Assembly (NCBI GenBank): GCA_043778225.1
Contig: JAYWGM010000059.1
Span: 1-20,243, forward strand
Length of the DNA stretch: 20,243 nt
Reading direction: 5' to 3'
Source of the DNA: Deinococcales bacterium
Lineage (GTDB): Bacteria; Deinococcota; Deinococci; Deinococcales; JAAFIG01
Positions 1-20,243 of this stretch are shown here, in pieces. The notes below the pieces were generated by a model that saw only the letters and a program-made list of their open reading frames with translations, searched no databases and was not told where the DNA came from. Each line of letters begins with the position of its first letter. Within the stretch, counting starts at the first letter, position 1. A program made the position numbers and the translations under genes.

Positions 1-33
1 CACTGCTTGTAATGCTTCTCGAGTTCTTCAGTT

Positions 34-435
34 GTGTGGTGCGCGGTCAGAGGTGTGCCTAATCTTGACATTCCGTATTATCTACCTAAAGTTGGTATAA
101 TCCGTTTTGCTAATTCTAAGTTTAACTCTGAAGAACCTAGCGAGTCACTAAAGGAAGTTAATTCACAAAGCAACAAACTTGCTAAAGCTATTCTAGCAAC
201 TGCGGACACCATACCAATTCCAGATGTTGGTTTCAGTAAAGAGGAATGGGATCGTAAGCGAATAGATATTTTGGAACATGAAATATGGTTTTTGTGTATT
301 TCACAGTTTCAGGAGTTGCTAGAGCATTGCAATTCGACTGAAGATTTTGAACGGGAACTATTTAGATTACGAAGTATCACATTTGGGTTGTCTGATTTTC
401 TTTGGGAATGGGATTACATTCGTAACCTCGCGTAG
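34..435 (+). CDS. Hypothetical protein in an AT-rich segment; may be the 3' part of a frameshifted gene entering from upstream of the window
   Basis: 133-codon ORF with protein-like composition. The segment is clearly more AT-rich than the rest and the ORF has no CTCGAG. No convincing start signal or recognisable motif. Confidence 0.4.
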   Translation: MWCAVRGVPNLDIPYYLPKVGIIRFANSKFNSEEPSESLKEVNSQSNKLAKAILATADTIPIPDVGFSKEEWDRKRIDILEHEIWFLCISQFQELLEHCNSTEDFERELFRLRSITFGLSDFLWEWDYIRNLA

Positions 436-569
436 TCAACTTGTACCGTACCCAATAGGTATGAGTTCTATACATATGAAAATGTGTTCAGCGCTGGCTC
501 AAGATACAAAATACCTCAAATTTCAACTCGAGTAGGCTTTCTTCTATTTCTTTGGCGTATTCTAAGGGC

Positions 570-2393
570 GTGAGTTCTCCTACCAAACCCAGTGAGCCAA
601 AAATAGATTCTCAACAAATGATTGCCGATTTACTGTCCACCCTGCGCCTCGTCTGGGATGCCAGTGCGCTCCACTCAAGTATCATTCTCGTCTCGAGTTT
701 GCTGACCGCATTTGCCCCTGCTGCAACCCTCTGGATTGGCAAGTTGCTGTTGGATGCGGTGGCATTAGCAACCCAAGGTAAGCTCGAGGGTGGCTTAGAG
801 GCACTGACCACGCTGCTCATTATTCAGGTTGGCATCGGGGCGCTTCTGGTGTTGCTTGGGGCATTGCAGGGCGCATCTCGAGAATTGCTGGGCGATGCGC
901 TTCAAAACCGTATTACGATGCAGATTTTGGGCAAAGCCGCCAATCTCGAGGTCGAGCAATTCGAGAATGCCAAGACTTACGATGCCTTAAAAAATGCCTA
1001 TAACGAAGTCGGTTTTCGTCCGATGAACGTGGCGACACAAGTGCTGGCGCTGGCTCAAGCCATCATTACGCTGGGTTCAATTGGTGTGCTGCTGGCACAA
1101 CTGGGTTGGTTGGTGCTGCTTCTCACATTGGTTGCCACGCTGCCGGGCGTGGTGGTCTCAAATCGCTTTGGGGCAGAATCCTACCGCCTGATTCGCCGCC
1201 GCACTCCCGATGCTCGAGTGCAGAACTATTTGGGAACGCTTCTGACCTCCGATGCCTTGGTTAAAGAAGTGCGTCTGTTTGGTTTCGAGCCATATTTAAT
1301 TGAGCGCTGGCAGATGTACTACCAAAAATTTCGGGCGCAACTTGTGCCGTTAATCATGCGCCGTTCTGGTTGGAGTTTTGCCGCCAGCCTTGGCTCGAGT
1401 TTACTGATTGGTGTGGCTACGCTTTCGGTGCTGGCTCGAGCGGCTGCTGGGGCGATTACGGTTGGTGATTTTGCGCTTTTTATTGGCGGTTTAGCCCAAG
1501 TCCAAGCCCAATTCTCGAGCCTGCTGTCGGGTGTTTCCAACATTTATCAAAGTTTACTGTATATGCGAAATTTGTTTGAATTTCTCGAGTTGCCACAGCG
1601 CGACCTCAATGCTGGCTTGGTCTGGTCTGAACCGATTGAAAGCATCGAATTCGAGAATGTTGCTTTTCGCTATCCTCTTACCAGCAAAGACGTGCTAAAA
1701 GGCGTAAATTTTAAGATTGTCAAAGGGCAGGCACTGGCTTTGGTCGGCGAAAATGGGGCGGGCAAAACCACGGCTGTTAAACTTTTAACCCGCCTTTTTG
1801 AACCGACTTCGGGCAGGATTTTACTCAATGGCTTGGATGCCAGTGCCTATTCGCCGCGCAGTGTCCAAACCCAAATGAGCATTATTTTCCAAGATTACGG
1901 GCAGTACCAGATGACGGCTCGAGAAAATGTCGCACTGGGCGAACTAACGCGGATTACCGACACATCAGCCCTCGAAGAAGCGGGGGCGCAAAGTGGCGCA
2001 AATGAATTTGTCGAAACCTTGCCAAATGGCTACGACACGATGCTTGGGCGAATGTTTGAAGGCGGGCGGCAGCTTTCTGGTGGGCAATGGCAACGGCTCG
2101 CGCTCTCGAGGTTGTATTTTCGCCATGCCAGTGTGCTGGTTTTTGATGAACCAACCGCCGCTCTGGATGCCCAAGCCGAATTTGACACGATTGAGGCGCT
2201 TCGCACCCAAGCCGCCGACCGAATGACGGTTTTGATTTCGCATCGCTTTAGTACCGTGCGCCTCGCCGATACGATTTTGGTTCTCGAGCATGGCATTATT
2301 GCCGAGTCGGGTTCGCATCAGGCTTTGGTGGCAAGCGGCGGGATGTACGCCCAATTGTTTAAGCTCCAAGCCAAAGGGTATCAAGCCACTTAA
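570..2393 (+). CDS. Fused ABC exporter (transmembrane domain plus ATP-binding domain), ~607 aa
   Basis: Hydrophobic N-terminal half; Walker A GENGAGKTT, signature LSGGQWQR, Walker B VLVFDEPT, H-loop ISHR. Start moved from the track's 552 to GTG 570, which lies 6 nt after TATTCT (558-563). Confidence 0.93.
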   Translation: MSSPTKPSEPKIDSQQMIADLLSTLRLVWDASALHSSIILVSSLLTAFAPAATLWIGKLLLDAVALATQGKLEGGLEALTTLLIIQVGIGALLVLLGALQGASRELLGDALQNRITMQILGKAANLEVEQFENAKTYDALKNAYNEVGFRPMNVATQVLALAQAIITLGSIGVLLAQLGWLVLLLTLVATLPGVVVSNRFGAESYRLIRRRTPDARVQNYLGTLLTSDALVKEVRLFGFEPYLIERWQMYYQKFRAQLVPLIMRRSGWSFAASLGSSLLIGVATLSVLARAAAGAITVGDFALFIGGLAQVQAQFSSLLSGVSNIYQSLLYMRNLFEFLELPQRDLNAGLVWSEPIESIEFENVAFRYPLTSKDVLKGVNFKIVKGQALALVGENGAGKTTAVKLLTRLFEPTSGRILLNGLDASAYSPRSVQTQMSIIFQDYGQYQMTARENVALGELTRITDTSALEEAGAQSGANEFVETLPNGYDTMLGRMFEGGRQLSGGQWQRLALSRLYFRHASVLVFDEPTAALDAQAEFDTIEALRTQAADRMTVLISHRFSTVRLADTILVLEHGIIAESGSHQALVASGGMYAQLFKLQAKGYQAT

Positions 2394-3494
2394 TCCTCAT
2401 CGCTGCTGCTGGTGGCTGTGGCGCGTTGCCCAGCCAGCCACTCGAGACCCGCCCAAATAAATTCGTCAAGGTCGCCATCCAGCACATTGGCGGGGTTGTG
2501 CTGCATTACCCCCGTGCGGTGGTCTTTGACATATTGCTTATCCAGCACATAACTGCGAATTTGGCTGCCCCACTCGATACTTTTTTGTTGCCCACGGGCT
2601 TTGTCTTCGATTTCACGCTTTTTACGCATTTCCATTTCGTACAATCTCGAGCGCAAGACGGTAAAGGCTTTGTCCTTATTTTTAAGTTGGCTGCGCCCAT
2701 CTTGGCAAACCACAACAATCATGTCGGGTGTGCCAGCTTTATAGGTTAAACGCACCGCGCTGTCGGTGGTGTTGACCCCCTGTCCGCCGTGTCCACCAGC
2801 CCTAAAAACATCTATCCGAACATCGGCGGGGTTAATTTCGACTTCCGAGGCATCCTCGATTTCGGGCATGATTTCGATGCTCGAGAAACTGGTTTGGCGT
2901 TTACCTTGGGCGTTAAATGGCGAGACCCGCACCAAGCGATGCACCCCAGCTTCGCTTCGCAATAAACCATACGCCCGTTCGCCGCGCACAATCAATTCGG
3001 CATAGGTAATTCCAGCTTGGTCGCCGGCGGTATAATCCAACAACTCGACTGCAAAATCATGGCGTTCGGCATAGCGCTGTACCATCCGCAACAGCATTTG
3101 CGCCCAGTCTTGGCTTTCTGTGCCACCCGCGCCTGGTTTAATCACCAAAATAGCAGCAGCCTCGGCATGATGGACATTAAATAGTGTTTCTTTGTAGAGC
3201 GCATCCACCCGAGTTGTTGCCTCGAGTAAATCTGGCTCGAGTTCGGCTTTTTCATCATCAGATGCCAACTCGAGCATTTCGCCCAAGCCCAGCACATCCG
3301 ACTCGAGCCGCACAAAATCGTCGACCACACGGCGCAAGGTGGTACTTTCTTTGGTCACATGGCGGGCATTGCTCGCGTCGTTCCACAGATTTGGGTCGTT
3401 GAGCGAAACCTCGAGAAGATCTAAACGGGCTGTTTTACCAGCGATGTCAAAGATACCCCCGAAGGTTTTCAAGTTTTTCTTGTAATTGGGTCAT
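2390..3494 (-). CDS. prfB: Peptide chain release factor 2, translated through a programmed +1 frameshift (join 3494..3450 and 3448..2390; ~367 aa)
   Basis: SPF motif (VRVSPFN) and GGQ motif (GGHGGQGVNTTDSAVR). ATG at 3494 follows a GGAGG SD and reads MTQLQEKLENLRGYL up to CTT-TGA-C, then continues in the +1 frame as DIAGK... Confidence 0.97.
3446..3460 (-). promoter_or_regulatory. prfB autoregulatory +1 frameshift cassette
   Basis: Minus strand GGGGGTATCTTTGAC: an internal SD-like G run just before the canonical CTT-TGA-C shift site. Confidence 0.96.
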
Positions 3495-3526
3495 AAGTCC
3501 TCCGCGACAAATGGTCGCAACTTAGG

Positions 3527-3535
3527 ATTCTAACA
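3527..3535 (-). promoter_or_regulatory. Putative extended -10 promoter for prfB
   Basis: Minus strand TGtTAGAAT ending 32 nt upstream of the ATG. A short GCGAC/GTCGC hairpin (3504-3518) abuts the SD. Confidence 0.5.
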
Positions 3536-3596
3536 CGAAGATTTGTCATCTCTTGTTGTTCTCATGCTTTCTCGAGTAAAGTACGAAGGGGATTTG

Positions 3597-4085
3597 ATGA
3601 AACGTACACCACTCGATGTTCGACACCAAGAATTTTCTAATGCGCTTTCCGGGTACTCCAAAAGAGACGTGCGCGAATTCTTGACCAGTGTTGCCGAAGA
3701 CCTCGAGGAATACGAACGTGGCATGAGAACCACCCAAGAGCGAATTGGATACCTCGAAGCCCAAGTCAACGAACTGCGCCAAGGCGAAGAAACCCTCAAG
3801 CGGGCAGTGGTCAGTGCCGAACGCATCGCCAACGAAATGAAGCTCAATGCCGAACGCGAAGCCTCTTTGCGGATTAAAAATGCCGAACACCAAGCCCAAA
3901 CCCTGATTCAAGAAGCCGAGAATCAAAAAGAACAATTGCTGCGCGAAGCCTTAAACAAGGCTCGAGACATTCGGGTCGAAATGGATCGTCTGCGTTCACA
4001 GCGTTCAATGTTTGCTTCGCAATTCAAGGCGTTGTTGCAAAGCCATATGGAAAATATAGACCGAGGCGAAGACAAAGGGACTTGA
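3597..4085 (+). CDS. divIVA: DivIVA domain-containing cell division protein (~162 aa)
   Basis: N-terminus MKRTPLDVRHQEFSNALSGYSKRDVREFL fits the DivIVA motif and is followed by a long coiled coil. AAGGGG SD precedes ATG 3597. Confidence 0.88.
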   Translation: MKRTPLDVRHQEFSNALSGYSKRDVREFLTSVAEDLEEYERGMRTTQERIGYLEAQVNELRQGEETLKRAVVSAERIANEMKLNAEREASLRIKNAEHQAQTLIQEAENQKEQLLREALNKARDIRVEMDRLRSQRSMFASQFKALLQSHMENIDRGEDKGT

Positions 4086-5325
4086 GTCTCGAGTCAGTCA
4101 TATCGGTCTGGTCTCGAGTCACATCATATCGGTCTGGTCTCGAGTCAGTCATATCGGTCTGGTCTCGAGTCACTTCAATCACCATCGAAGCGCATTTGCC
4201 ACCAAAGCCAAACGAATTCTTGAGGGTTCGCAAGGTTTTTTCGGGTGGAAAAGGGCTGTTGGTAAAATTTAATTTGCCTTGGGGCTTTAGGAAGTCACAA
4301 TTTTGCAAGTTGTGAATGTGCGGAATAACGCCATGCTGCATGGCTTTTATGGCATAAATCGTCTCTAAAATTCCCGAGGCTGCCAAGGTGTGACCGATTT
4401 TACTTTTTGGGGCATAAATCGGAATATACGGAAACAACTCTGAAAGCACTTTGTATTCGACTGCATCACCAATTGGGGTCGAAGTCGCGTGGGCGTTGAT
4501 GGCATGAATTGTACCCACTTCACGGACGGCTTTTTGGATTGCCAAAATTGCGCCACGACCATCCTGATGTGGCGAGGTTGCATCGTGTGCGTCGGATGCC
4601 ATACCAACTGGGTAGAGCCGTGCGTAAACGGTGCTGCCATAGGCTTTGGCTTTGGCTGGGCTTTGTAAAATTAGGGTAGCTGCGCCTTCGCCCATACAAA
4701 AACCTTCGCGCCGTTGGTCAAATGGAGCGCTTAAATTACCAAGCGCATTGATATAAGCAAAGTATTTCATCGAGAACGAAAAACAACCCGCGTCGGCTGC
4801 CCCAACCACCACATAATCGTATTCCTCGAGTAACTTCATGGCGCTGTCTATTGAAATTAAACCAGTGCTGCACGAAGCAAAAAGCGAATACGACACACCT
4901 TGAAAATTATATTGACACGCCACTTGGTTACAAGCAATATCGGGCAGCCGATTGACGATGGCGAGCGGGTGAACCCGGCGGTTCTCGACAAATTTTGGAA
5001 TTGCATCTTCGATAAATTCTGAATCGTTAGAAACGGTCGAGATAATCACCGCCACATTGGTGCTGTGCTTGAGTCCAGAATGCTCGAGTGCCTGAGCCGT
5101 GGCGTGCATCGCAAGGCGTTGGGTGCGGGTTAAACCTTTGTCTGAAAATCCTATCGGTAGGCGAACATCGGCTTGATTGGCTTTGATGCCTCGCTTAATT
5201 TTTCCATTGACAAAAAAATCCAAGTCGGACACAAAATCGGTCTCGTTCAGCAGGTTCTCAAAGCACATTTGCGGGTGATGACCTAACCCGTCGATCATTC
5301 CGTAGCCTACTACATTAGCAATCAT
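4024..5325 (-). CDS. Beta-ketoacyl-ACP synthase family protein (FabF/FabB-like), with a C-terminus extended by a tandem repeat
   Basis: Catalytic Cys in ASCSTG, His in INAHATST, His in KSKIGHT; also SAPFD..REGF.MGEGAA and NSFGFGG. Confidence 0.9.
   Translation of the reverse strand: MIANVVGYGMIDGLGHHPQMCFENLLNETDFVSDLDFFVNGKIKRGIKANQADVRLPIGFSDKGLTRTQRLAMHATAQALEHSGLKHSTNVAVIISTVSNDSEFIEDAIPKFVENRRVHPLAIVNRLPDIACNQVACQYNFQGVSYSLFASCSTGLISIDSAMKLLEEYDYVVVGAADAGCFSFSMKYFAYINALGNLSAPFDQRREGFCMGEGAATLILQSPAKAKAYGSTVYARLYPVGMASDAHDATSPHQDGRGAILAIQKAVREVGTIHAINAHATSTPIGDAVEYKVLSELFPYIPIYAPKSKIGHTLAASGILETIYAIKAMQHGVIPHIHNLQNCDFLKPQGKLNFTNSPFPPEKTLRTLKNSFGFGGKCASMVIEVTRDQTDMTDSRPDRYDVTRDQTDMTDSRLKSLCLRLGLYFPYGFATTP
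4086..4172. repeat. Tandem repeat of about 3.5 units of 25-26 nt, each containing CTCGAG
   Basis: Units: 4086-4110 GTCTCGAGTCAGTCATATCGGTCTG, 4111-4136 GTCTCGAGTCACATCATATCGGTCTG, 4137-4161 identical to the first, 4162-4172 partial. Confidence 0.95.
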
Positions 5326-5396
5326 TACGGTTATCTTACGTTAAAACAGGCGATGGCTGACACTTTTTAGGGCTTAGATTCGGTAGACTCGAGAAC

Positions 5397-6209
5397 GTGA
5401 TTGTTCTTTCAAACAAATTTGCTCCTGCCACTCGCTTACTCTGGCATTCTGGGGTGCTTGGTGCGCTGGATGGGATTGCCAAAGCGGGTTTCTCGGCAGC
5501 CGAAGTCTGGGCAAGCCACATCAGCGAGTCTCGAGTCCCACCGCTTTTGGTTAAGCAACGCGCCAATGAACTGGGCTTAGCTTTATCGTTGCACGCCCCG
5601 AGTTACGACCTGAATCCGCTCTCGAGCAATCCAGAAATTCGCAGTCTATCGCGCCGCTTGGTGCTTGATTCGCTCGAGGTAGCGGCACGGCTCGAGGCAA
5701 AAATCGTGGTGGTGCATCCGGGGGCGCTTTCGAGCAGCACCGACGACCCCGAGGAATACTGGGGACGGCTCGAGGAGTACGCAGTTCAACTCGATGCTCG
5801 GGCAGCCCACTTGGGTTTAACGGTAGCGATTGAAGCCATGGAAAAAAAACGGCTACAATTTGTGACCAGCATTTCCAGTCTCGAGCGTTTATCAAGGCTA
5901 CTGAATTCGGTCAGCGCCAGACAAGTCGGCATTTGCCTCGACATCGCCCATGCTGGCACACTTGGCGACCCCGAAGAATTTTTAGCAACTGTTCCAAGAA
6001 TTGTGCATCTGCATTTATCAGACACCAGCGACGAAAAGACCCATGCGCTGTTGGGCGAAGGGCGTTTGAACTTAGCCGCCATTGTCCCAAAGTTACTCGA
6101 GAAAATCTCTAAAACCACTGGGCTGATTGTGATTGAAGGGCGCTTGGCTTCGGATGAAGCTCGAGCCATTGCAGTCGCCGCAAGTTATTTGGCGCGATTT
6201 AGTTCTTGA
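5397..6209 (+). CDS. Sugar phosphate isomerase/epimerase (xylose isomerase-like TIM barrel, AP endonuclease 2 family)
   Basis: SLHAP..DLNPLS and VVVHPG, plus the metal-ligand pattern AIEAM / CLDIAHA / HLHLSD / VIEG. GTG lies 7 nt after TAGACT. Confidence 0.85.
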   Translation: MIVLSNKFAPATRLLWHSGVLGALDGIAKAGFSAAEVWASHISESRVPPLLVKQRANELGLALSLHAPSYDLNPLSSNPEIRSLSRRLVLDSLEVAARLEAKIVVVHPGALSSSTDDPEEYWGRLEEYAVQLDARAAHLGLTVAIEAMEKKRLQFVTSISSLERLSRLLNSVSARQVGICLDIAHAGTLGDPEEFLATVPRIVHLHLSDTSDEKTHALLGEGRLNLAAIVPKLLEKISKTTGLIVIEGRLASDEARAIAVAASYLARFSS

Positions 6210-6876: not shown

Positions 6877-6950
6877 GGGAAAAAAGGTGAAAGGGGAAAA
6901 AGGTTAAAAGCTTTTACTTTTCACCCTTTCACCTTTTGACCTTTTCACCC
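6877..6950. repeat. Intergenic octamer-based imperfect inverted-repeat element, copy 1
   Basis: Purine arm 6877-6910 and pyrimidine arm 6917-6950 are complementary at 26 of 34 positions. Both are built from ~8-nt units of the form AAAAGGTN. Confidence 0.85.
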
Positions 6951-6957
6951 TCTCTTA

Positions 6958-8739
6958 TCACCTCCCAACCAAACTCAGAATACGCGGCTCAGGGCGGTAG
7001 TACAAAAAGTTAATCGGCAAGTACGAACCACTGGCTGGCACAATTTCGATTTCGATTCGGTCGCGGTCATTGGCGCGGTAAACCACCACGGGTAAATCGT
7101 TGCGATACAGCGTGCCACTGTCGGGCAGGGCGGTAAAAACCCCATTGATTTTCATTGCTCCAGCATATGGACCACCACGCGGCACAAGCGCCCCGACTGT
7201 GCCTCGGGCGTTCTCGAGAATAATCGAGTAGGTCACGCCAAAATTGCCTTTGAGGTTCATTTGCTCACCGGTCAGGGCATCGCGCCCAATGATGTTCGGG
7301 TCGTAGTTGCCATCGCCAATAATCTGACGAATCGCCGCCCCAGTCTGGACTTGATTTAAGTCCACGCGGATACGCCGCACTGCTCCATAAAATGTGCCAC
7401 GCTGATGAATCCCATCTCGAGGTAAAGCTGGTAAATTGCGTAAGGTCGTGAGCATTAAAGCGCCAGCTAAATCACCCAGGCTAGGCGTGACCAAGGCTTC
7501 ATCTAAGAAAAAAATTGAGCTTTGGATTCGTCCGTTGCTCTCGAGGTCAAACATCAGGTTTAAGCCTTCGCCTGTATCGAGCGAATTAGAAAGGTAAAGT
7601 GGCGCAGCTTTGCCCGGCTCGAGTACCAGTGTTTCTAAGCCGCTCGAGGTTAGAAAATCGAGCAAACTTGCCCGCCCAAGGGTTGCTACCACGGTCGTGG
7701 CACTGGTCACCCCAAAGCGTGAAACCTTGACCGCCACGGGGGTTGTCTCGAGGTTTGTGACCCAAACCATCAGCCGCCCCAAGGAATTCATACCATTGGT
7801 GTGGTACGCCATTAAGCGTGCCGCACCATTGATCACTTCTTCGTAGAGTAAGCCACTGCGGTCGGGTTCTTCGGGTGAATCCGAAAAAATAAGCGGTACA
7901 GCTTCGTCTTCACGGCTGATTTGGGCTTGTGGGTAGGTCAGCACATTGCTGTCTGGGAAGGTTCGCCCGACGGGCACAAAACGTAAGCCAAATTCTTTAG
8001 CGGTATACAGCACTTCGTTGCTGACTTTAATGTTGACAATAAATGGCTCGGAGATTAAACCATTGCGATTGGTGACCACCAGCGCAATGCTTTTGATACC
8101 ACCACTAAAATAGGCATCCTCGCGCCCTGTAAAACGCTCCAAGGTAATCGGCACACCATTGGGGTCGTAACTGTACTCGATGATTCGCACAGGTTCGCCA
8201 ATTTTGTATTCTTTTTTATCGGTTGCAAAACGTGCCACTGGTAAACTGGTATCGACACTGCCGTCTCGAGCCACAGTAATACTAATCAAGCGCTGGATGG
8301 TATCAAACGAAACCGTGGCATTGAGGGCTTGGTCTAACACCCGTGCGACCACAAACATATTGCCCTCGAGTACCGTAGCGACTTCACTCAGTGGCACTTG
8401 CCGCCCATTGAGACGGGCTAAACGTAAACTTGGATAAATATCGAGTTTGCCAAAGCGTAAACCATCGGGAAAATCACGCACGGTTTCGATTGGAATGGCT
8501 AAAACCCGCCCGAGTTCACGCAAGGGCAGCACCGTTCGCCCATCCACAGTACGCGCACTCGAGCTAAATTGCACCCGTGAGCCATTCAAAAAACCGAAAT
8601 TAGCATCCAAGGGCCAGACCAATTGCCGAGTTGCCAAACGGGTGGCTTGGCGGGCTGGCTGGGTGCTTTGCGCTAAGGCAATGGCAGAAAATAAAAGCGC
8701 GAGCATAAACGCATTTCGCGCCAAAAAGGTCAACTTCAC
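6958..8739 (-). CDS. Secreted/surface protein with a copper amine oxidase N-terminal-like (stalk) domain and an uncharacterised C-terminal region (~593 aa)
   Basis: Signal-peptide-like N-terminus ending ALA-Q. Stalk-like segments DGRTVLPLRELGRVL and EGNMFVVARVLDQALNATVSFD; Ig/PKD-like PVARFATDKKEYKIGEPV..SYDPNG. GTG 8739 lies 7 nt after TGtTATCTT. Confidence 0.65.
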   Translation of the reverse strand: MKLTFLARNAFMLALLFSAIALAQSTQPARQATRLATRQLVWPLDANFGFLNGSRVQFSSSARTVDGRTVLPLRELGRVLAIPIETVRDFPDGLRFGKLDIYPSLRLARLNGRQVPLSEVATVLEGNMFVVARVLDQALNATVSFDTIQRLISITVARDGSVDTSLPVARFATDKKEYKIGEPVRIIEYSYDPNGVPITLERFTGREDAYFSGGIKSIALVVTNRNGLISEPFIVNIKVSNEVLYTAKEFGLRFVPVGRTFPDSNVLTYPQAQISREDEAVPLIFSDSPEEPDRSGLLYEEVINGAARLMAYHTNGMNSLGRLMVWVTNLETTPVAVKVSRFGVTSATTVVATLGRASLLDFLTSSGLETLVLEPGKAAPLYLSNSLDTGEGLNLMFDLESNGRIQSSIFFLDEALVTPSLGDLAGALMLTTLRNLPALPRDGIHQRGTFYGAVRRIRVDLNQVQTGAAIRQIIGDGNYDPNIIGRDALTGEQMNLKGNFGVTYSIILENARGTVGALVPRGGPYAGAMKINGVFTALPDSGTLYRNDLPVVVYRANDRDRIEIEIVPASGSYLPINFLYYRPEPRILSLVGR

Positions 8740-8784
8740 ATTGCCCAAGATAACAAATTTTGGTGTGACAAAACGACCTACCCC

Positions 8785-10200
8785 TCAGGCTCGGGTGTAT
8801 GCCGCCATAAACTTGGCTCGAGCTTGGCGGGTTACTTCGAGGTTTGAAGCTGGTTCGGCAATCAGTTTTGGGCTTGGCAGCATGGTGCTGGTTTCTTGGG
8901 CATTCTTGTATGTGCCGATCGCTAGACCCGCCAATAAAGCCGCCCCTCGAGCGCTGGCATGGCTTGTGCCACTCGAATAAAGTGGGGTCTCGAGACAGTC
9001 GCACAGCAGTTGCCGCCAACGTGGCTCGAGTGTCCCGCCACCGACCAATTGCAAAGCTGGAAGCTCGAAGTTAGTTTGTTGTAAGGCACTCATGCCATCA
9101 GCAATGCTAAAAGCCACGCCTTCCAGAGCCGCCCGTGCCAAATGAGCTTGGCGGTGTTGTAAACCTAAATTCAAAAACGCACCTCGAGCCTGTGGGTTTA
9201 AGTGTGGGGTGCGCTCACCACTGAGATACGGCAAAAAAATCAGGTCTTGTGAATCTGGCACTTCAAATGCCAAGTGATGAAACTCAGCCCAGTCTAAGCC
9301 CAGCCAACCCCGCACCCGCTCGAGCGCCAGTCCAGCATTCTGCATGGCTGCCATGGCATAGTAACCATGCTCGAGAACCGTGCGGTAACAATGGATATTG
9401 GCTTGATAGGTAGCAGTTTCTCGGGCGATAATAATTTGCGCCCCAGTGCCAACACTCAGTTGGGCTGTGCCAGCTTGTAGAATGCCATTGCCAAGCATTG
9501 CACAAGGCGTGTCGCCGCCGCCAGTGGCGACGGGAATACCAGCCACCAAGCCAAGATGCTCGGCGGCTTTTTTGGTCAATAGCCCAGCTATGGTACTCGA
9601 GCCGCGAAGCTCGGGCAATAGGTTTGGCAGTTCTAATTGCTCGAGAACATCGAGCGCCCAAGTATTCTGCTCGAGGTCATAAAGTAAGGTTGCCGAAGCA
9701 TCCGAAGGGTCGGAAGCAAACATACCCGTTAAGCAAAATCGCAGCCAGTCTTTGGGCAGCAGCGCCCAGCGCAGACCCTCAAAACTCGAGAATTTCTTGC
9801 ACCACAATAAAGTCGCGCCCATCATTCCGGTCACAATTGGATTACCCAAGCGCTCGAGTTGCCGTGGAGTTAGAGCCAAATACGGCTCGAGAACCGCCTC
9901 GGAACGCCCATCCGACCATAAAATCGCATCTCGAGTCGGTCGCCCGACAGCATCGCACAGCACCGTTCCGTGCATCTGCCCAGACAGACCAATGGCACGT
10001 ACCTCGGCGCTGTGCTGACCAATTGCTTCTCGAGCCGCCGCGCCAATCGCCGCCCACCACTCGAGCGGATTGCTTTCTGACCAGCCAGACTGTGGCGCAT
10101 TGACCGCATAGGTTCTCGAGGCTTGTCCTAAAACCAGACCCTCGAGACTGAGCAGCAAGGCTTTGCACGACCCCGTACCAAGGTCAAGTCCTAGGAGCAT
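8785..10200 (-). CDS. xylB: FGGY-family carbohydrate kinase, xylulokinase-like
   Basis: LGLDLGTGSCKA, GLSGQMHG, ILWSDGRS, LPKDWLRF.LTG, SDASAT, GGGDT and PYLSGERTPH. The substrate is inferred. Confidence 0.85.
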   Translation of the reverse strand: MLLGLDLGTGSCKALLLSLEGLVLGQASRTYAVNAPQSGWSESNPLEWWAAIGAAAREAIGQHSAEVRAIGLSGQMHGTVLCDAVGRPTRDAILWSDGRSEAVLEPYLALTPRQLERLGNPIVTGMMGATLLWCKKFSSFEGLRWALLPKDWLRFCLTGMFASDPSDASATLLYDLEQNTWALDVLEQLELPNLLPELRGSSTIAGLLTKKAAEHLGLVAGIPVATGGGDTPCAMLGNGILQAGTAQLSVGTGAQIIIARETATYQANIHCYRTVLEHGYYAMAAMQNAGLALERVRGWLGLDWAEFHHLAFEVPDSQDLIFLPYLSGERTPHLNPQARGAFLNLGLQHRQAHLARAALEGVAFSIADGMSALQQTNFELPALQLVGGGTLEPRWRQLLCDCLETPLYSSGTSHASARGAALLAGLAIGTYKNAQETSTMLPSPKLIAEPASNLEVTRQARAKFMAAYTRA

Positions 10201-10205
10201 AAAAG

Positions 10206-10294
10206 AAGGGAAAAAGGGAAAAAGGGAAAAAGGGAAAAAGTTTCTCGAGTAAGGTATTTTACTTTTAACCCTTTAACCTTTTGACCTTTTAACC
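10206..10294. repeat. Intergenic octamer-based imperfect inverted-repeat element, copy 2
   Basis: (AAGGGAAA)x4 arm, a spacer containing CTCGAG, then pyrimidine arm 10257-10294, which matches 6912-6949 at 35 of 38 positions. Confidence 0.85.
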
Positions 10295-10300
10295 TGCTCT

Positions 10301-10340
10301 TCACGCCAGTATCGTGACCTGTGCCGCTCACGCCAGTATC
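10301..10340. repeat. 13-bp direct repeat duplicating the 3' end of the sugar ABC ATPase gene
   Basis: TCACGCCAGTATC at 10301-10313 and 10328-10340, a 27-nt period. Confidence 0.8.
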
Positions 10341-11113
10341 TCTGGTGCGATGTCTTCGACTTTCATTGCTCCAGTCATAATCGCTACGGTGTCGGACATA
10401 CTGATTTTCTTGGGGTTGACCACGGCGGCGCGTTTGCCGAGGCGCTGAATATGAATTCGGTCGGCGAGTTCAAACACATGGGGCATATTGTGGCTGATCA
10501 AAATAACAGGTAAGCCGTTATCGCGCACCCGACGGATTAAATCCAGCACCATATTGCCTTCTTTGACCCCCAGCGCTGCTGTTGGTTCGTCCATAATCAC
10601 CACATGGCGGGCAAAAGCTGCGCTTCGTGCCACTGCCACGCCCTGACGCTGCCCACCGGATAAGGTCTCGACTGCTTGGCTCATGCTGCGAATGCCGATT
10701 TTTAAGCCATCCATGTGGCGCGTGGCTTCCTCGAGCATTTTTTTATGGTCAATCACCCGAAAGAGTTTAGCTAAAAATCCAGAGCGCAAAATTTCGCGCC
10801 CCAAAAATAAATTTTCAGCAATTGTCATTGCGGGAGCAACCGCTAAATCTTGATAAACCGTCTCGATACCATGGTGGCGGGCATCTATCGGGCTGCGAAA
10901 TTTAACGGGTTTACCATCGAGCATGATTTCGCCAGAATCGGGGATGGTTGCGCCAGATAAGGCTTTAATTAAGCTGCTTTTGCCAGCGCCGTTGTCGCCG
11001 ATGACCGCCAAAATTTCGCCAGCTTTGAGTTCAAAATCTGTGCCATCCAGCGCCGTCACTTGTCCATAGCGCTTGACCAAATTTCGGGCTTGGAAAATCG
11101 TGTCTTGGTTCAT
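10328..11113 (-). CDS. Sugar ABC transporter ATP-binding protein with a single ATPase domain, FrcA-like
   Basis: GDNGAGKSS, GIETVYQDLA, LSGGQRQG, VIMDEPTAALGV, LISHNMPHV. Confidence 0.93.
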   Translation of the reverse strand: MNQDTIFQARNLVKRYGQVTALDGTDFELKAGEILAVIGDNGAGKSSLIKALSGATIPDSGEIMLDGKPVKFRSPIDARHHGIETVYQDLAVAPAMTIAENLFLGREILRSGFLAKLFRVIDHKKMLEEATRHMDGLKIGIRSMSQAVETLSGGQRQGVAVARSAAFARHVVIMDEPTAALGVKEGNMVLDLIRRVRDNGLPVILISHNMPHVFELADRIHIQRLGKRAAVVNPKKISMSDTVAIMTGAMKVEDIAPEILA

Positions 11114-14466: not shown

Positions 14467-14499
14467 AAAAACAAAAAACCCCTCGAGACACTCGAGGGG
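14467..14499 (-). terminator. Rho-independent terminator after the phytase-like esterase gene
   Basis: Minus strand CCCCTCGAG-TGT-CTCGAGGGG followed by TTTTTTGTTTTT. Confidence 0.85.
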
Positions 14500-15776: not shown

Positions 15777-15813
15777 ACACTGTGCATTGTGGCTGTGGCT
15801 GGTCAGGTTTAGG

Positions 15814-16650
15814 TCAATCACACAAACTTGACAAAGCGCTAGAGCGATAGCGAGCGCGGTAAAGACGTGGCGACATTTTTGAGGCTTGTGCAAAAACAGC
15901 ATAAAACCGCGCTAGACTCTGAAAGCCAGACTCAAATGCCACATCCAAAACACTCGAGTCTTGGGTAATCAATAAGCGCTGGGCGTGTGCCAAACGGTGT
16001 TGGGTCAGAAATTGGTGAATTGTCAGCCCAAAGGCTTGTTTAAATACGGTCATGGCATAATTGGGGTTTAAGCCAAAATCTCGAGCCAGCGTCGTGGCAG
16101 TGATTGGCTTGGTGTACTCTTGGGCAATCACTTGTGCAAGTTGCTCGGCAGTGCTGCGTCGGCTGTCGTCAAGAATCTGATTGTGTGTCGAATCCTCGAA
16201 CTGGGCAAAGCGGTGTAAAAAGGCTTCGGCTTCGAGCATCACGGCACGGTGCTGGCGAATTGGGTCGGTGTTGGTTTGTGGGCGAACGGACTGTTGTAAA
16301 TCCATTGCCCAGCGCTCAAATAAAGCACAATCCAAACTTGGGTTGTGGCTGCGGCGAATCTGAGGTGTGCCATGCAGCAAAGCATTTCTAAGGTGACTTG
16401 GAATATCCCAGCGCAAGAATTCGGTCAGCGGAATGTGTAAAACGCCAAGTTTTGATGCGGGTTGGCAATAAATAATACGGTGCGGTGTGATTGCCCAATA
16501 TGCCGTGACTTCGGCTGCCCGCAACACCACTCGAGTCCCGCCCATCAGATAATGCAGTTCGCCACTGGCAATCAGATTGAGTTCTATTTCGCTGTGCTGG
16601 TGTAAATGCTCAATCACCCAAGGCTCGCCAAACCAGCCAAGTAAATTCAT
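15814..16650 (-). CDS. AraC-family transcriptional regulator (MelR-like; cupin plus double HTH, ~278 aa)
   Basis: H.HSEIELN..YWAITPH cupin; C-terminal RLAHAQRLL..SVLDVAFESGFQSLARFYAVF..MSPRLYR. ATG 16650 lies 7 nt after TATACT. Confidence 0.9.
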   Translation of the reverse strand: MNLLGWFGEPWVIEHLHQHSEIELNLIASGELHYLMGGTRVVLRAAEVTAYWAITPHRIIYCQPASKLGVLHIPLTEFLRWDIPSHLRNALLHGTPQIRRSHNPSLDCALFERWAMDLQQSVRPQTNTDPIRQHRAVMLEAEAFLHRFAQFEDSTHNQILDDSRRSTAEQLAQVIAQEYTKPITATTLARDFGLNPNYAMTVFKQAFGLTIHQFLTQHRLAHAQRLLITQDSSVLDVAFESGFQSLARFYAVFAQASKMSPRLYRARYRSSALSSLCD

Positions 16651-16750
16651 GCTTTTAAGTATACCTGAGTATCCAAGAAAATGAGTTTGGTCAACGATAA
16701 GACACTTTGGGTCAAGATCGCTAGACTGGGCTAAATCAAAAGGAGTCATC

Positions 16751-17572
16751 ATGAGTCATTTACCCGACCTCTCGAGCCACTACGCCCTCCAACCCGAACA
16801 AATTACAGCTTTCCAGCGCGATGCGGTCACGCTGGTGCAGGGCTTAGCCAGTCCTGAAGAAATTGGTACTTACCGCGAGAAAATCAACCAAGCAGTCGCA
16901 CAATTTAATCAAGAAACCCGCCCCCTGAGCGAACGAGACACCTATGGCATGGCATTTTTGCAGACCATGAACCTCTGGACTCGAGACCAAGCGGTACAGC
17001 AATTTAGTTTTGCCAAACGCTTTGCGCGGGTCGCAGCAGAACTGTTGGGTGTCTCTGGGGTGCGGATGTACCACGACCAAGCGCTCTACAAAGAACCCGG
17101 TGGTGGCGCAACCCCATGGCATCAAGACCAACATTATTGGCCACTCGATACTGATCGCACCATCACAATGTGGATGCCTCTGGTGGACATTCCAGCCGAA
17201 GTTGGGACACTGACTTTTGCCCCCGGTTCGCACACCCGAGGCTACCTTGGCGATTTACCGATTAGCAATAAATCTGATGATGTTTTTAAGGCTTTTATTC
17301 TCGAGAACGGTTGGGAAACCCGCACTTACGGAGCAATGAAGGCTGGCGATGCGACGTTTCATAGCGGTTGGATTCTGCACAATGCCCCCAATAACCCCTC
17401 GCTTACTTTTCGCCGCGAAGTGATGACGATTATCTATATGGCGCAAGATTCACGAGTAGGGATTGCTGACCATGCCAACCGTCAAAACGACCTTGCCGCG
17501 TGGTTGCCCGGTTGTCAGCCCGGCGATTTGGCTGCCAGTCCGCTCAATCCAGTCTTATACTCGAGCCAATGA
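16751..17572 (+). CDS. Phytanoyl-CoA dioxygenase (PhyH) family Fe(II)/2-oxoglutarate oxygenase
   Basis: DQALYKEPGG, TPWHQD (HxD), GTLTFAPGSH, GDATFHSGWILHNAPNN..RR; AAAGGAG SD. Confidence 0.9.
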   Translation: MSHLPDLSSHYALQPEQITAFQRDAVTLVQGLASPEEIGTYREKINQAVAQFNQETRPLSERDTYGMAFLQTMNLWTRDQAVQQFSFAKRFARVAAELLGVSGVRMYHDQALYKEPGGGATPWHQDQHYWPLDTDRTITMWMPLVDIPAEVGTLTFAPGSHTRGYLGDLPISNKSDDVFKAFILENGWETRTYGAMKAGDATFHSGWILHNAPNNPSLTFRREVMTIIYMAQDSRVGIADHANRQNDLAAWLPGCQPGDLAASPLNPVLYSSQ

Positions 17573-20243
17573 ATCACGATATTCGCATGACCGCCAAAAA
17601 AATCCAGTCTCGACTCGGGTGGATTGCAGGACTGGTTTACCGTCAGCATCAGCCACTCGAGCCACTGCGTTTTAAGCATATTCAACTCGAGAAGCCGCCA
17701 CTCGAGGACGATGGCTTGGGGATAGCCCTTTTGCCACGCACGTATTGGGGTGGGCAGGACATCAATTTTGTGCTGCATGGCAGTTTTTGTGTACCAAACC
17801 ATTTTGACCCAACTGCCCCGGTGGCTCTATTTTTGCCACTGGGCGAGGCTGGCGATTTTAGTCATGCCGAGGCGCTGGTTTATCTTGATGGTGTGCCGTT
17901 TGGTACAACCGACCGGCATCACCAAGAAGTTTTACTGACCCCTCAATTTGCCGATGGTGCAGTGCATTCGGTCCTGCTACATGGTTGGACTGGCACACTT
18001 GGGGCAATGGGCGGCGAGTCTGGCAGACAAATTTTTATTGGCGATTATGGCTTGGTGCAAATTGACCAAAACACCCGAGATTTTTTAGCCTTAGCACGAA
18101 CAGCCTTACAAACCGCCAATTTGCTCGAGGAAGTCAACCCAACTAAAAATTTACTCTACAACGCCCTGAATATGGCTTTTATCGCCCTCGAGGCTCGAGA
18201 TTTTTACGCTAGTGTACCAAAGGCGCTCGAGTTACTGCGGGCTGGCATTGCGGCATCGGGTGCGCCACTCGAACTCACCGTGATTGCGGCGGGTCATGCC
18301 CATATTGATGTCGCATGGCTTTGGACACTGGGGCAAACCCGCCATAAAGTTGCTCGGACTTTTCAGAATGTGCTGCGCCTGATGGAACAATTCCCAAGTT
18401 ACCACTTTACCCAAAGCCAACCGCAGTTGTATCAGTATGCGCTCGAGGACAGCCCCGCGCTGTTTGAACAAATTAAAGCCAAAGTCAAGGCTGGGCGCTG
18501 GGAAGTGATTGGTGGAATGTGGGTCGAAGCCGATTGCAATATCTCGGGGGGCGAATCTTTGGCGCGGCAATTAATTTTAGGGCGCAAGTTTTTTACCGAG
18601 CATTTTGGGGCTGGCACAGAATCGCCCGTTTTGTGGCTACCAGATGTCTTTGGCTATGCTTGGAATTTGCCGCAACTGATGAAGCTGGCTGGTCTCGAGT
18701 ATTTTTTTACGATTAAAATCGGCTGGAATCAGGTCAATCAATTGCCCTTTGATTCATTTTGGTGGCAAGGTATTGATGGCACAAAAGTGCTGACCCATTT
18801 TAGCACCACCCCAGACACCCCGTGGAGTGGCGAGCCAAGCACCCCAGACATGAAAAATTATGCGACCTACAACGCCCAGTTAAACGCCTTTGGCGCACTT
18901 GGTTCGTGGGCAAAACTCAAGCACAAAGCTGCCCAAAAAACCATGCTGATGAGCTATGGCTACGGCGATGGTGGTGGCGGACCAACCCGCGAAATGCTCG
19001 AGAACGCCCAAGTGCTTCAATCTTTTCCTGGTCTTCCCCAAGTGCGCCAAGGTCAAGTGATTGATTTTTTTCGGCAACTGCAAGCCGAAAGTGGCACACA
19101 ACTGCCAACTTGGAATGCCGAACTCTACCTCGAGCTTCACCGAGGTACATACACCAGTCAGGCACGCAATAAACGCGCCAATCGCCAAGCCGAATTTTTA
19201 CTGCATGATGCCGAATTTGTCGCCACTTTTGCCAGTCTACTCGAGCCAAGTTTTATTTATCCTCATGCCGCCCTCGAGCAAGCCTGGCAATTGGTTTGCT
19301 TAAACCAATTTCACGACATTATTCCCGGCAGCAGCATCGGTGCGGTCTATCAAGAATCGCTTCAGCAGTACGAGCAGATTAGGCGCTTAGGGAATGGGGT
19401 TCTCGAGTCAGCCCTCGAAGTCATCAAAACACAGGTCGGCGGCGATGTTGTCTTGGTCAATCCGACTGGTTTTAAGCGCTCGGATTTGGCGTTCTGGGCT
19501 GGGAAGTTACCGGCTGGCATGAGCTTTGGGGCTGGGGTCTACACTCAAGAAACAGCCGATGGTACACTGATTGCGACTGATTTGTATCCCTATCGCCCTG
19601 TGGCGTTGCAGTTTTCCCAAACTCCTCAAGAAGAACCTTACGGCTCGTTGCAGATTACCAAAAACCTACTCGAGAACGACCTGTTGCGGGTCGAACTCAA
19701 CGATTTTGGCGACATTGTGCGGATTTTTGACAAAGAAGTCAAGCGCGAAGTCTTGCCCAAAGGCGCAATCGCCAATCAATTTCAGGCTTTTGAAGACCGC
19801 CCTTTAATGTGGGATGCGTGGGACATCGACATTTTTTACGACGACAAAATGTATTTGGCAACCCCAGCCAGCCGTATTCGGATACTCGAGTCGGGGTCTT
19901 TGCGTGTCAGCCTCGAGCTTGAGCGCCAGATTTTAGGCAGCCTGTATACCCAAAAAATTTCGCTGACCCGTTGGAGTAAGGTCTTAAAATTTGAGACCAG
20001 CATAGACTGGCGCGAACGCCAGACGCTCTTAAAAGTGGCTTTCCCAGCCGATATTCTTTCGCCAACCGCCACCCACGAAATTCAGTGGGGACAAGTTGAA
20101 CGCCCAACCCACCGCAACACCTCTTGGGATTGGGCGCGTTTTGAAACCTGCGCTCAGAAATGGGTGATGCTTTCGGAAAATGGCTATGGTTTGGGTTTAA
20201 TCAACGACTGCAAGTATGGACACGACATTCACGATAATGTGAT
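17569..20243 (+). CDS. Glycoside hydrolase family 38 alpha-mannosidase, 3'-truncated by the window end (>890 aa; absent from the ORF track)
   Basis: The ATG overlaps the PhyH stop (ATGA). In-frame GHAHIDVAWLW, FTQSQPQLY, GGMWVEAD, WLPDVFGY, YGYGDGGGGPT, ELYLELHRGTYTSQ, LNQFHDIIPGSSI and NTSWDWARFE. Confidence 0.95.
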   Translation, partial: MNHDIRMTAKKIQSRLGWIAGLVYRQHQPLEPLRFKHIQLEKPPLEDDGLGIALLPRTYWGGQDINFVLHGSFCVPNHFDPTAPVALFLPLGEAGDFSHAEALVYLDGVPFGTTDRHHQEVLLTPQFADGAVHSVLLHGWTGTLGAMGGESGRQIFIGDYGLVQIDQNTRDFLALARTALQTANLLEEVNPTKNLLYNALNMAFIALEARDFYASVPKALELLRAGIAASGAPLELTVIAAGHAHIDVAWLWTLGQTRHKVARTFQNVLRLMEQFPSYHFTQSQPQLYQYALEDSPALFEQIKAKVKAGRWEVIGGMWVEADCNISGGESLARQLILGRKFFTEHFGAGTESPVLWLPDVFGYAWNLPQLMKLAGLEYFFTIKIGWNQVNQLPFDSFWWQGIDGTKVLTHFSTTPDTPWSGEPSTPDMKNYATYNAQLNAFGALGSWAKLKHKAAQKTMLMSYGYGDGGGGPTREMLENAQVLQSFPGLPQVRQGQVIDFFRQLQAESGTQLPTWNAELYLELHRGTYTSQARNKRANRQAEFLLHDAEFVATFASLLEPSFIYPHAALEQAWQLVCLNQFHDIIPGSSIGAVYQESLQQYEQIRRLGNGVLESALEVIKTQVGGDVVLVNPTGFKRSDLAFWAGKLPAGMSFGAGVYTQETADGTLIATDLYPYRPVALQFSQTPQEEPYGSLQITKNLLENDLLRVELNDFGDIVRIFDKEVKREVLPKGAIANQFQAFEDRPLMWDAWDIDIFYDDKMYLATPASRIRILESGSLRVSLELERQILGSLYTQKISLTRWSKVLKFETSIDWRERQTLLKVAFPADILSPTATHEIQWGQVERPTHRNTSWDWARFETCAQKWVMLSENGYGLGLINDCKYGHDIHDNV

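Follow-up and report, generated by a model that had tools for sequence, protein, structure and literature searches.

We analysed a 20,243-bp stretch of DNA, hereafter the window, which is contig C59 of G000, a metagenome-assembled genome (MAG) of an uncultured Deinococcales family (4,029,277 bp in 107 contigs, 89% complete, GC content 0.487). Along the window runs an array of the palindromic hexamer CTCGAG, which reads identically on both strands and spans 18..19917. A preliminary description had counted about 115 copies by hand over this interval, in all three codon phases and between genes, and had put the enrichment at more than 20-fold. Direct counting agrees closely: we find 116 sites, which begin with the one at 18-23 and end with that at 19912-19917, while 100 dinucleotide-preserving shuffles of the window contain 2.97 sites on average (standard deviation (sd) 1.78, maximum 8) and none of the 100 reaches 116. 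We find that CTCGAG is a highly iterated palindrome (HIP) of this Deinococcales family, of the type represented by HIP1 in cyanobacteria, and that it occurs at other strengths in several other Deinococcota lineages.

Using a window gene list curated from Pfam hits, we assigned 61 sites to the CTC-GAG frame, 23 to nCT-CGA-Gnn and 24 to nnC-TCG-AGn, and the remaining 8 lie between genes (1,621 bp, 4.9 sites/kb), so the three phases and the intergenic sites are all present as described. The sites start at 18, 527, 692, 783, 877, 945, 1213, 1394, 1435, 1514, 1584, 1918, 2105, 2283, 2441, 2646, 2880, 3221, 3236, 3269, 3302, 3410, 3571, 3702, 3961, 4088, 4113, 4139, 4164, 4825, 5083, 5388, 5530, 5621, 5673, 5691, 5769, 5880, 6096, 6160, 6586, 6610, 6715, 6770, 6859, 7213, 7416, 7540, 7618, 7643, 7747, 8265, 8365, 8558, 8817, 8946, 8989, 9025, 9183, 9319, 9370, 9596, 9640, 9670, 9785, 9853, 9886, 9930, 10029, 10060, 10115, 10141, 10244, 10730, 11123, 11335, 11381, 11669, 12073, 13273, 13367, 13519, 13803, 13964, 14177, 14232, 14245, 14482, 14491, 14568, 15094, 15601, 15953, 16080, 16530, 16771, 16980, 17300, 17560, 17656, 17686, 17701, 18124, 18187, 18194, 18226, 18442, 18694, 18997, 19129, 19240, 19273, 19402, 19669, 19885 and 19912. 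Those between genes begin at 18, 527, 5388, 10244, 11123 and 13273, and two more (14482-14487 and 14491-14496) stand 9 bp apart in a single spacer between two genes. Among the genes, that for a peptide chain release factor (PCRF and RF-1 domains; 2390..3472, minus strand) carries 8 sites in 1,083 bp. A GH38 alpha-mannosidase gene contains two sites 7 bp apart that together form the 13-bp palindrome CTCGAGNCTCGAG (18187..18199). This start-to-start distance of 7 is found for 123 pairs in the genome, compared to 30-53 pairs for each of the distances 8-11, and its middle base is unbiased.

Genome-wide, we count 24,877 CTCGAG, which corresponds to one site per 162 bp, 6,174 per Mb and an observed/expected ratio (O/E) of 26.7 from base composition, in line with the enrichment first claimed. 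CTCGAG is the most over-represented hexamer of the genome; the next-ranked words merely overlap it, and the best unrelated hexamer has an O/E of 4.9. We rejected a maximal-order Markov O/E (1.16) as circular, because G follows 89% of all CTCGA words, which already lie inside CTCGAG. The flanks are nearly uninformative genome-wide, with C disfavoured at -1 and -2, and the 8-bp palindromic extension CCTCGAGG is avoided (0.30x of independence); therefore, the unit is the hexamer itself. Gaps between sites of less than 20 bp occur at 0.3-0.66x of the geometric expectation and gaps of 50-200 bp at 1.15-1.3x. The coefficient of variation (CV) of all gaps in the genome is 1.0, and site counts in 5-kb windows are slightly over-dispersed (sd 6.8 vs 5.6 for a Poisson process). 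Site density is flat over gene starts and stops (5.2-8.6/kb) with only a mild rise near stop codons (5.9-8.6/kb vs about 6.2/kb overall), and the gene-end density profile shows no terminator pairing, the inverted arrangement that is frequent for uptake sequences. Lastly, tRNA genes called with ARAGORN hold 6 sites, compared to 32.6 expected at genome density and about 1 from composition.

A directional force on the CTCGAG hexamer

An artefact of the assembly, the binning or the library, such as a linker containing an XhoI site, might be suspected in a MAG of 107 contigs and 89% completeness, but it has practically no chance and is already refuted for the window family, given that the trait is present in 19/19 family genomes, one of them a single contig, and in two further MAG records, and that sites occupy orthologous positions in conserved genes of independent assemblies. 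Contigs identical to most of the window are also present in two public biofilm runs of one study; this is possibly the source sample and hence not independent support.

The excess might instead be an ordinary by-product of composition: of codon usage, frequent Leu-Glu pairs, the abundance of TCGA, or a high-GC ancestor that left CTC and GAG favoured. There are observations that such an explanation can claim. Genome coding sites fall mostly in the CTC-GAG frame (13,031, or 59%, compared to 4,468 and 4,658 in the other two, using 3,585 genes from a crude longest open reading frame (ORF) caller), high-GC phage contigs (GC 0.60-0.73) reach 3-7 sites/kb from codon usage, most of them with GAGCTC equally common, and Thermus-like and some f4 genomes have CTCGAG and GAGCTC in about equal numbers. 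However, the GC content of the window genome is only 0.487, CTC and GAG outside the motif make up 9.7% of Leu codons and 24% of Glu codons, and GAGCTC, which is the same two codons in reversed order, occurs 24 times in the genome. Synonymous-codon shuffles within each gene, which keep both the protein and its codon usage, predict 2,367 sites in coding sequence where 22,188 are seen, and codon-order shuffles predict 1,046. A codon-pair (dicodon) Markov model is circular as a null, as in-frame sites are kept by construction and the pairs are inflated by CTCGAG itself, and for the out-of-frame classes it predicts 2,698 and 2,255 sites where 4,481 and 4,668 are seen, 9,149 in all. With the longest-ORF caller, the density is 6.17 sites/kb in coding DNA and 6.20/kb in the remaining DNA. 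Because truncated genes at contig ends pass for non-coding DNA with this caller, we repeated the non-coding test strictly and obtained 5.16/kb in ORF-free DNA, with no open frame of at least 70 codons in any frame (465 sites in 90 kb), and 6.27/kb in spacers of 30-400 bp between two called genes (1,541 sites in 246 kb). Finally, 24,877 of the 36,442 TCGA in the genome lie inside CTCGAG, and the other 11,565 compare to about 15,700 expected (0.74x).

The preliminary description had argued that amino-acid bias does not explain the excess, and had named a dicodon-preserving null and general TCGA abundance as tests that could overturn it. The argument stands on the codon shuffles, the out-of-frame sites and the spacer density, and neither test overturns it: the dicodon expectation is about half of what is seen out of frame, and TCGA is under-represented outside the hexamer. 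The composition explanation, to which we give scarcely any credence, is thus already refuted for the window family; it stays a partial explanation of the weak excess in high-GC relatives. These data show a directional force on the DNA hexamer that acts chromosome-wide, equally in genes and spacers and in every codon frame.

CTCGAG has also changed the proteome, prevailing over codon preference and over the protein sequence itself. CTC-GAG is the spelling of 69% of Leu-Glu pairs, compared to 6.8% predicted by overall codon use; CTC rises from 9.7% of Leu codons generally to 88% before GAG, and GAG from 24% of Glu codons generally to 93% after CTC. The Leu-Glu dipeptide itself is found 18,892 times where 8,135 are expected (2.32x), with Glu-Leu at 0.96x. 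For instance, some sites in the release-factor gene fall on Leu-Glu pairs that are also present in relatives but are spelt there CTG-GAG, TTG-GAA and the like, and one site uses the rare Arg codon AGA. Other sites in this gene needed an amino-acid change: F-S-S stands where 8 of 10 compared relatives have F-A-x, and L-E stands where relatives have D-E, L-D, Q-Q or T-S.

Sites are conserved above background between related genomes. In five same-genus genomes (76-80% nucleotide identity), 55-75% of window sites are kept compared to 22-30% of control hexamers, at orthologous positions covering about 10-15 kb per genome. For two genomes that are 94.4% identical, 47 of 52 sites are kept (90%) compared to 73% of controls, and simple arithmetic on this pair puts site loss at roughly one third of the change rate of an average hexamer. 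When three extra locus pairs are added, mostly restriction-modification (R-M) islets, the contrast is weaker (77/96 sites vs 71% of controls). Turnover is large: a site is present in all six genomes at only 8 of 40 six-genome columns, and about 40% of sites differ between same-genus species. One example is 10730..10735, which is CTCGAG in the window genome, G005 and G006, TTCTAA in G003 and ATCGAG in G007; TTCTAA is the reverse complement of TTA-GAA, which leaves Leu-Glu unchanged. Relative to genomes of about 94% identity (G003/G005), the window sites at 1838, 10730 and 13803 show triple changes within the hexamer. The flanks at 1838 and 10730 are almost identical, and one of the differences, CTCGAG vs TTCTAA, is fully synonymous. 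The excess of triple changes is not significant (3/19 differing site hexamers vs 4.8% of differing controls; binomial p = 0.06), and short recombination imports are a possible explanation that would suffice.

Loci that are one base away from CTCGAG number 13,793 beside the 24,877 perfect sites, or 0.81x of the composition expectation; had the perfect sites been left to decay freely, many more such loci would probably be seen. Transversion variants are at 0.15-0.95x and transition variants at 1.16-1.41x, with CTTGAG, the C-to-T neighbour, at 1.41x. The depletion of one-mismatch variants that the preliminary description had suggested looking for is therefore present in mild form overall but absent for transitions. 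By position, the genome has 6,184 one-off loci with a changed outer base, 3,503 with a changed second base and 4,106 with a changed central base. Single-difference transitions at window sites in the five same-genus genomes number 13 at the outer position and 7 and 7 at the others, which are small numbers.

Recently acquired DNA is poor in sites. Site density climbs with gene GC content, from 0.47/kb below GC 0.36 to 7.5/kb at GC 0.52-0.56, and every one of the longest stretches without a site is a low-GC island (0.33-0.38) that looks like a recent acquisition: for example, a polysaccharide-synthesis cluster (G000:C44:57430-63066), an unknown 1,186-residue protein beside a helix-turn-helix (HTH) gene (C41:55253-59552) and a NACHT/STAND NTPase (C70:76690-79170). 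Genes of GC 0.36-0.40 have 2.5 sites/kb compared to about 0.13 expected, demonstrating that acquired low-GC DNA is loaded with sites before its GC content converges.

A few other features of the window concern its assembly and neighbourhood. Its first ~100 bases (1-109) match more than 20 places in the same-genus genome G003 (90-92% identity), and at many of these places a contig starts about 40 bases away; we probably see here the terminus of a repeated or mobile element at which assemblies break. Short intergenic repeats at 6877-6957 and 10204-10307 recur, in either orientation, at numerous loci in genomes of the genus; in the two public runs, contigs connect 6951 to 10259 through these repeats, and many loose ends begin there. 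Gene order is poorly kept within the genus, with the window's 16 genes spread over at least 8 contigs of G003 (a 120-contig assembly). In addition, runs X1/X2 contain a relative that is about 88% identical over the release-factor gene region (2390-3500) and that is, in the same biofilm samples, several-fold deeper than the window strain.

Spread of CTCGAG and avoidance of other palindromes

In a search with the release factor, the nearest records are "uncultured Deinococcales bacterium" MAGs (78-79% identity), followed by Trueperaceae, Thermus, Meiothermus, Calidithermus and Deinococcus at 55-64%. All 19 genomes of the window family (five genera, all MAGs) carry about 4.3-6.8 sites/kb, calculated with rounded genome sizes, and the density stays within this range over sampled GC contents of 0.49 to 0.62. 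With its abundance, its use of all frames and spacers and its presence in 19/19 family genomes, CTCGAG is the HIP-like system that the preliminary description had supposed for this lineage. In a phylum-wide scan of 364 genomes, 111 Deinococcus-like genomes have 26-1,372 sites each. A genus distant from the window family, g19, contains two genomes at 8.6 and 7.0 sites/kb and a third (G151) at 0.3/kb, and a genus neighbouring g19 has 3.6/kb. One unpublished genome, G325, is counted in our tallies, and no claim depends on it.

Base-composition O/E is unsafe above GC 0.6, as is evident from the high-GC phage contigs. Therefore, we used a composition-free index on 20-kb samples, namely the share of Leu-Glu spelt CTC-GAG compared to the product of codon frequencies. 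The share is 0.47-0.73 in family members (expected 0.12-0.14), 1.00 in G149 (0.21), 0.74 in G032 (0.16), 0.75 in a sample from a Meiothermus relative (0.24) and 0.45-0.60 in four Trueperaceae-like samples (0.06-0.21). It is 0.22 in a Thermus-like sample (0.33), 0.04 in G151 (0.06) and 0.00 in a Deinococcus-like sample (0.08). We counted 2.7 sites/kb at a 7-kb locus of Calidithermus roseus and 2.3/kb at one of Meiothermus rufus; loci of this length give about 1/kb in two Thermus species and 0/kb in two named Deinococcus species and in a Deinococcus sp. MAG. The enrichment suspected for Meiothermus-like genomes thus holds in a weaker form (2.7 and 2.3 sites/kb; 75% vs 24%), and this graded picture outside the family is only indicative, given small samples and rough gene calls in high-GC DNA. 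In two further loci every TCGA lies inside CTCGAG, 20/20 in L195 (G022, Thermus-like, 20 kb) and 7/7 in L037 (Thermus arciformis, 7 kb), and in both CTCGAG itself is no higher than codon usage gives. A scan of viral contigs for three closely spaced sites found, among the matches listed, only high-GC phage contigs whose sites are those of codon usage, and is uninformative on the phages of the family.

CTCGAG is hyper-abundant in genomes that avoid most other palindromes. Of the 64 hexamer palindromes, 31 have an O/E of at most 0.05 in the window genome and 51 of at most 0.30; AGGCCT, GACGTC and GGGCCC each occur once in 4 Mb, GGCC occurs 131 times and GATC is at 0.13x. The only hexamer palindromes with an O/E above 1 are CTCGAG, AAATTT, AGCGCT, CAATTG, TTGCAA and GAATTC, and the window contains no GAGCTC-type sites beside its 116 CTCGAG. 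Across the family, palindromes matched to CTCGAG in composition are present in 0-568 (GAGCTC), 8-566 (CTGCAG) and 0-232 (GACGTC) copies per genome. The same three are near-absent from the two enriched g19 genomes, compared to 384, 634 and 543 copies in their congener G151. G032 is an exception, in that CTCGAG is enriched there without general palindrome avoidance. With about 20 methyltransferases and this purge of palindromes, the lineage of the window is under extreme R-M pressure.

Candidate mechanisms

We consider three mechanisms for the force on CTCGAG, namely weak selection, drive through DNA uptake and biased correction; the evidence here does not separate the three. In the first, each site would be under weak selection for a chromosomal function that depends on site density. 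CTCGAG might be a self-mark that shields DNA from a nuclease or defence system, following a Chi-like logic, or the site at which a nucleoid-organising protein binds, which is what Xu et al. suggested for HIP1, whose positional conservation they read as selection (2018, PMC5861425). Selection would account for the conservation of positions above background and for a density of 4.3-6.8/kb across sampled GC 0.49-0.62, as if set by a requirement. It would also fit the persistence of the trait across the family alongside very heavy palindrome avoidance, which implies intense nuclease pressure. However, the profile is flat and without preferred positions, and the 5-kb counts are over-dispersed, not regular. 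Since about 40% of sites differ between same-genus species, no individual site matters. Moreover, G032 has the motif without the general palindrome avoidance, and no candidate protein was found. We consider selection improbable as the main cause.

In the second, CTCGAG would be a signal in DNA uptake or transformation that molecular drive has spread. Fragments with CTCGAG, perhaps methylated, would be preferred by the competence machinery or at a step following uptake, and alleles with the motif would replace motif-less alleles through recombination among kin, a course also proposed for the uptake sequences (USS/DUS) of other bacteria and, recently, for HIP1. Thermus and Deinococcus are naturally competent. 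In the window genome, sites are distributed uniformly across genes and spacers, independently of gene features, recently acquired islands are site-poor, the spacing is somewhat more even than random (close gaps depleted, 50-200 bp enriched), and gene order is poorly kept between same-genus genomes, all of which uptake could explain. There is a parallel in HIP1, which is reported to improve transformation in a way that depends on methylation and whose abundance is described as correlating with type IV/competence genes (PMC13756078). A 6-bp palindrome would, however, discriminate little, as it occurs once per 4 kb in random DNA, and we see only a mild rise near stop codons, no terminator pairing and an overall gap CV of 1.0 despite the depleted close gaps. 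Known uptake sequences are also asymmetric, the density of 6/kb is about six times theirs, and competent Thermus and Deinococcus are without the enrichment. No receptor candidate was found, and none was sought. Taken together, we regard an uptake signal as rather unlikely.

In the third, which is the mechanism we prefer with a probability of roughly 0.4, a symmetric reader of R-M type biases mismatch or heteroduplex correction towards CTCGAG. In a duplex with a mismatch, arisen through replication error or recombination, a dimeric reader would recognise the strand that has the perfect hexamer and would direct very-short-patch correction or gene conversion towards CTCGAG. With correction directed this way, new one-off losses would be reverted and chance near-matches would be ratcheted into sites. 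The reader may rely on methylated adenine in the TCGA core or act independently of methylation, and frequent recombination between chromosome copies would amplify the bias to a genome-wide drive. Polyploidy and natural transformation are both features of Thermus and Deinococcus, and CTCGAG is the known type II specificity of XhoI and PaeR7I. We favour an R-M-type reader because the word is a perfect palindrome that matches a classical type II specificity, because the force is equal on all DNA including the recently acquired, and because the lineage is otherwise dominated by R-M pressure. Indirect indications come from the composition-matched palindromes, which are near-absent exactly where CTCGAG is hyper-abundant, and from a preprint on hot-spring communities that lists CTCGAG and TCGA as methylated motifs common to one host-virus group (10.64898/2026.06.24.734251).

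Several lines of evidence weigh against biased correction by such a reader. Transition one-off variants are not depleted (1.16-1.41x), and Xu et al. (2018, PMC5861425) read the positional conservation of HIP1 as selection and not as biased repair. The remaining points come from our search for the reader gene. The window genome has about 20 methyltransferase genes, a heavy R-M load, and among those followed across the 19 family genomes, no methyltransferase has an orthologue family-wide and none is assignable to CTCGAG or TCGA. Five of these enzymes used as protein queries are all patchy in the family; two C5 enzymes are genus-specific or patchy, and two N4/N6 enzymes are patchy. The only enzyme of M.TaqI-like build, a TaqI_C-type N6A methyltransferase on contig C65, has an orthologue (68% identity) in 2/18 other family genomes; the names of its homologues are generic ("TaqI-like C-terminal specificity domain-containing protein") and silent on specificity, and comparison with PDB sequences returned distant N6 methyltransferases only. 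The family follow-up left out C5 enzymes on C99, C2 and C55, N4/N6 enzymes on C41, C40 and C80, the enzymes on C95 and C92 and three type I M subunits.

Searching five representative genomes for the N6_Mtase, N6_N4 and C5 families, we found no C5 enzyme in G010 (91% complete), no PF01555 (N4/N6) enzyme in the single-contig genome G013, and almost no methyltransferases in G002 (82% complete) except a D12 enzyme; across the family, Eco57I-type hits have a patchy distribution. D12 enzymes are carried by 18/19 family genomes, and those of the window genome lie in low-GC islets, one adjoining an EcoRV-type nuclease and one a PD-(D/E)XK nuclease. Three large enzymes of the window genome are of the MmeI, type IIG and type ISP kind. 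Vsr (PF03852) has no match in the window genome (89% complete), and the XhoI-family endonuclease (PF04555) is found in 0/19 family genomes. Across Deinococcota, this endonuclease is present in 7/364 genomes with adjacent methyltransferases, which are either a 340-residue beta-class type or, beside a broken nuclease, a gamma-class Eco57I+TaqI_C type. These methyltransferases have no orthologue in the window genome, where the best tblastn matches are 25-44% identical over 290 residues or less, nor in the enriched genomes G357, G361, G150, G032 and G149. In family f4, the XhoI-family nuclease pairs with the 340-residue N6_N4 methyltransferase. At L360 (G356:C1:1094188-1097598), the XhoI-family endonuclease gene is broken by stops and lies in two frames beside an apparently intact Eco57I+TaqI_C methyltransferase, which may be an orphan in the making.

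MutS1 was also followed across the phylum; it is found in enriched and non-enriched lineages alike and does not discriminate between them. Separately, we find the MutS mismatch-binding domain PF01624 in only 35/128 Trueperaceae-like (f2) genomes and in 0/12 of genus g8, many of them 95-100% complete, and near-universally in the other families of the phylum. The preliminary description had proposed methylation-guided repair, and this proposal gains no support from genes: neither a conserved methyltransferase nor an XhoI-type enzyme was found, nor Vsr in the window genome. Our verdict is that no co-occurring gene was found, not that none exists, since some methyltransferases were not followed, specificity is not readable from sequence in this analysis and most genomes are incomplete.

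We also put forward a wider and more doubtful proposal, namely that Deinococcota harbour a hexamer-specific "motif drive", a form of biased gene conversion or repair that would write and keep CTCGAG without a dedicated conserved methyltransferase, would have been switched on, turned up or lost repeatedly, and would be linked mechanistically to the palindrome purge. In this full form it is somewhat unlikely. If true, such a drive has the strength to alter more than 10,000 protein positions and to raise the density to one site per 160 bp. It may be possible to identify the driver, because cultured Calidithermus and Meiothermus show a weaker form and one genus has both states (7-8.6 vs 0.3 sites/kb), and this would give the 30-year-old HIP1 problem a second, independent system.

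Comparison with known systems

No report of CTCGAG over-representation, in Deinococcota or elsewhere, was found in the full-text literature (subscription journals and REBASE were outside the search), and a HIP-like CTCGAG system in a new phylum is apparently unreported. Several known systems resemble it in part. The uptake signal sequences (USS) of Pasteurellaceae and DNA uptake sequences (DUS) of Neisseriaceae are asymmetric 9-12-mers at about one per kb, often paired in terminators. Like CTCGAG, they combine a genome-wide excess of a short word from a DNA-level drive with effects on proteins and scarcity in recently acquired DNA; CTCGAG, by contrast, is symmetric, six bases long and present at 6 per kb without preferred positions. 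In E. coli, Dcm/Vsr very-short-patch repair corrects mismatches towards a methyltransferase site, which raises the site and lowers its neighbours, and it is to our knowledge the only well-established mechanism of the kind proposed here. However, its effect in E. coli is small compared to the 27-fold excess of CTCGAG, the window genome is without Vsr, C5 methyltransferases are not universal in the family and CTTGAG is not depleted (1.41x).

The XhoI/PaeR7I systems share the recognition sequence itself, as does an orphan CTCGAG methyltransferase described in Nocardia, in whose genome the origin of replication carries clusters of the motif (Blow et al. 2016, PMC4752239). Restriction should deplete its site, whereas CTCGAG is enriched here and XhoI-family genes were not found in the window family. 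The Nocardia clusters are local to the origin, in contrast to the genome-wide excess of CTCGAG.

The closest likeness is to HIP1 (GCGATCGC) of cyanobacteria. Both are short perfect palindromes and the top over-represented words of their genomes, and the O/E of 26.7 for CTCGAG falls within the 15-300x given for HIP1 (PMC5861425). Both occupy genes and spacers, are conserved in position between related genomes and are lineage-wide with exceptions. In HIP1 the outer positions are the most variable, and for CTCGAG small numbers point in this direction. The differences are equally clear. CTCGAG is a hexamer of Deinococcota and HIP1 an octamer. The density of CTCGAG, 6,174 per Mb, is well above the 300-2,700 per Mb listed for HIP1 (Table 2, PMC4390886), and is six times the level, about one site per kb, at which Elhai's repair model as set out in the same paper (PMC4390886) predicts saturation. 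GATC and CGATCG methyltransferases are reported generally to accompany HIP1, whereas no cognate methyltransferase was found for CTCGAG in our searches, and CTCGAG leaves a clear imprint on the proteome (Leu-Glu 2.3x). HIP1 is further described as periodic at the 10-90 kb scale (Xu et al. 2018, PMC5861425). Alternate HIPs in cyanobacteria, for example GGCGCC in Calothrix PCC 7103, a 6-bp palindrome in place of HIP1 (Elhai 2015, PMC4390886), show that hyper-abundance is not tied to one sequence. As presented there, alternate HIPs are sporadic in single genomes, each with a methyltransferase of matching specificity (PMC4390886); in contrast, CTCGAG is family-wide (19/19), recurs in other families and has no matching methyltransferase assigned.

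HIPs have so far been treated as a cyanobacterial peculiarity, with biased repair, chromosome structure and DNA uptake debated as the cause. The finding has practical consequences in these genomes, where motif density distinguishes native from recently acquired DNA and where CTCGAG distorts the codon-usage and dipeptide statistics that annotation and binning tools take as neutral. A second, independent case in another phylum, with a different word, a higher density and an imprint on proteins, shows that the phenomenon is general. It also offers contrasts without a cyanobacterial counterpart: graded strengths across families, a genus in mixed states and cultured relatives with a weaker form.

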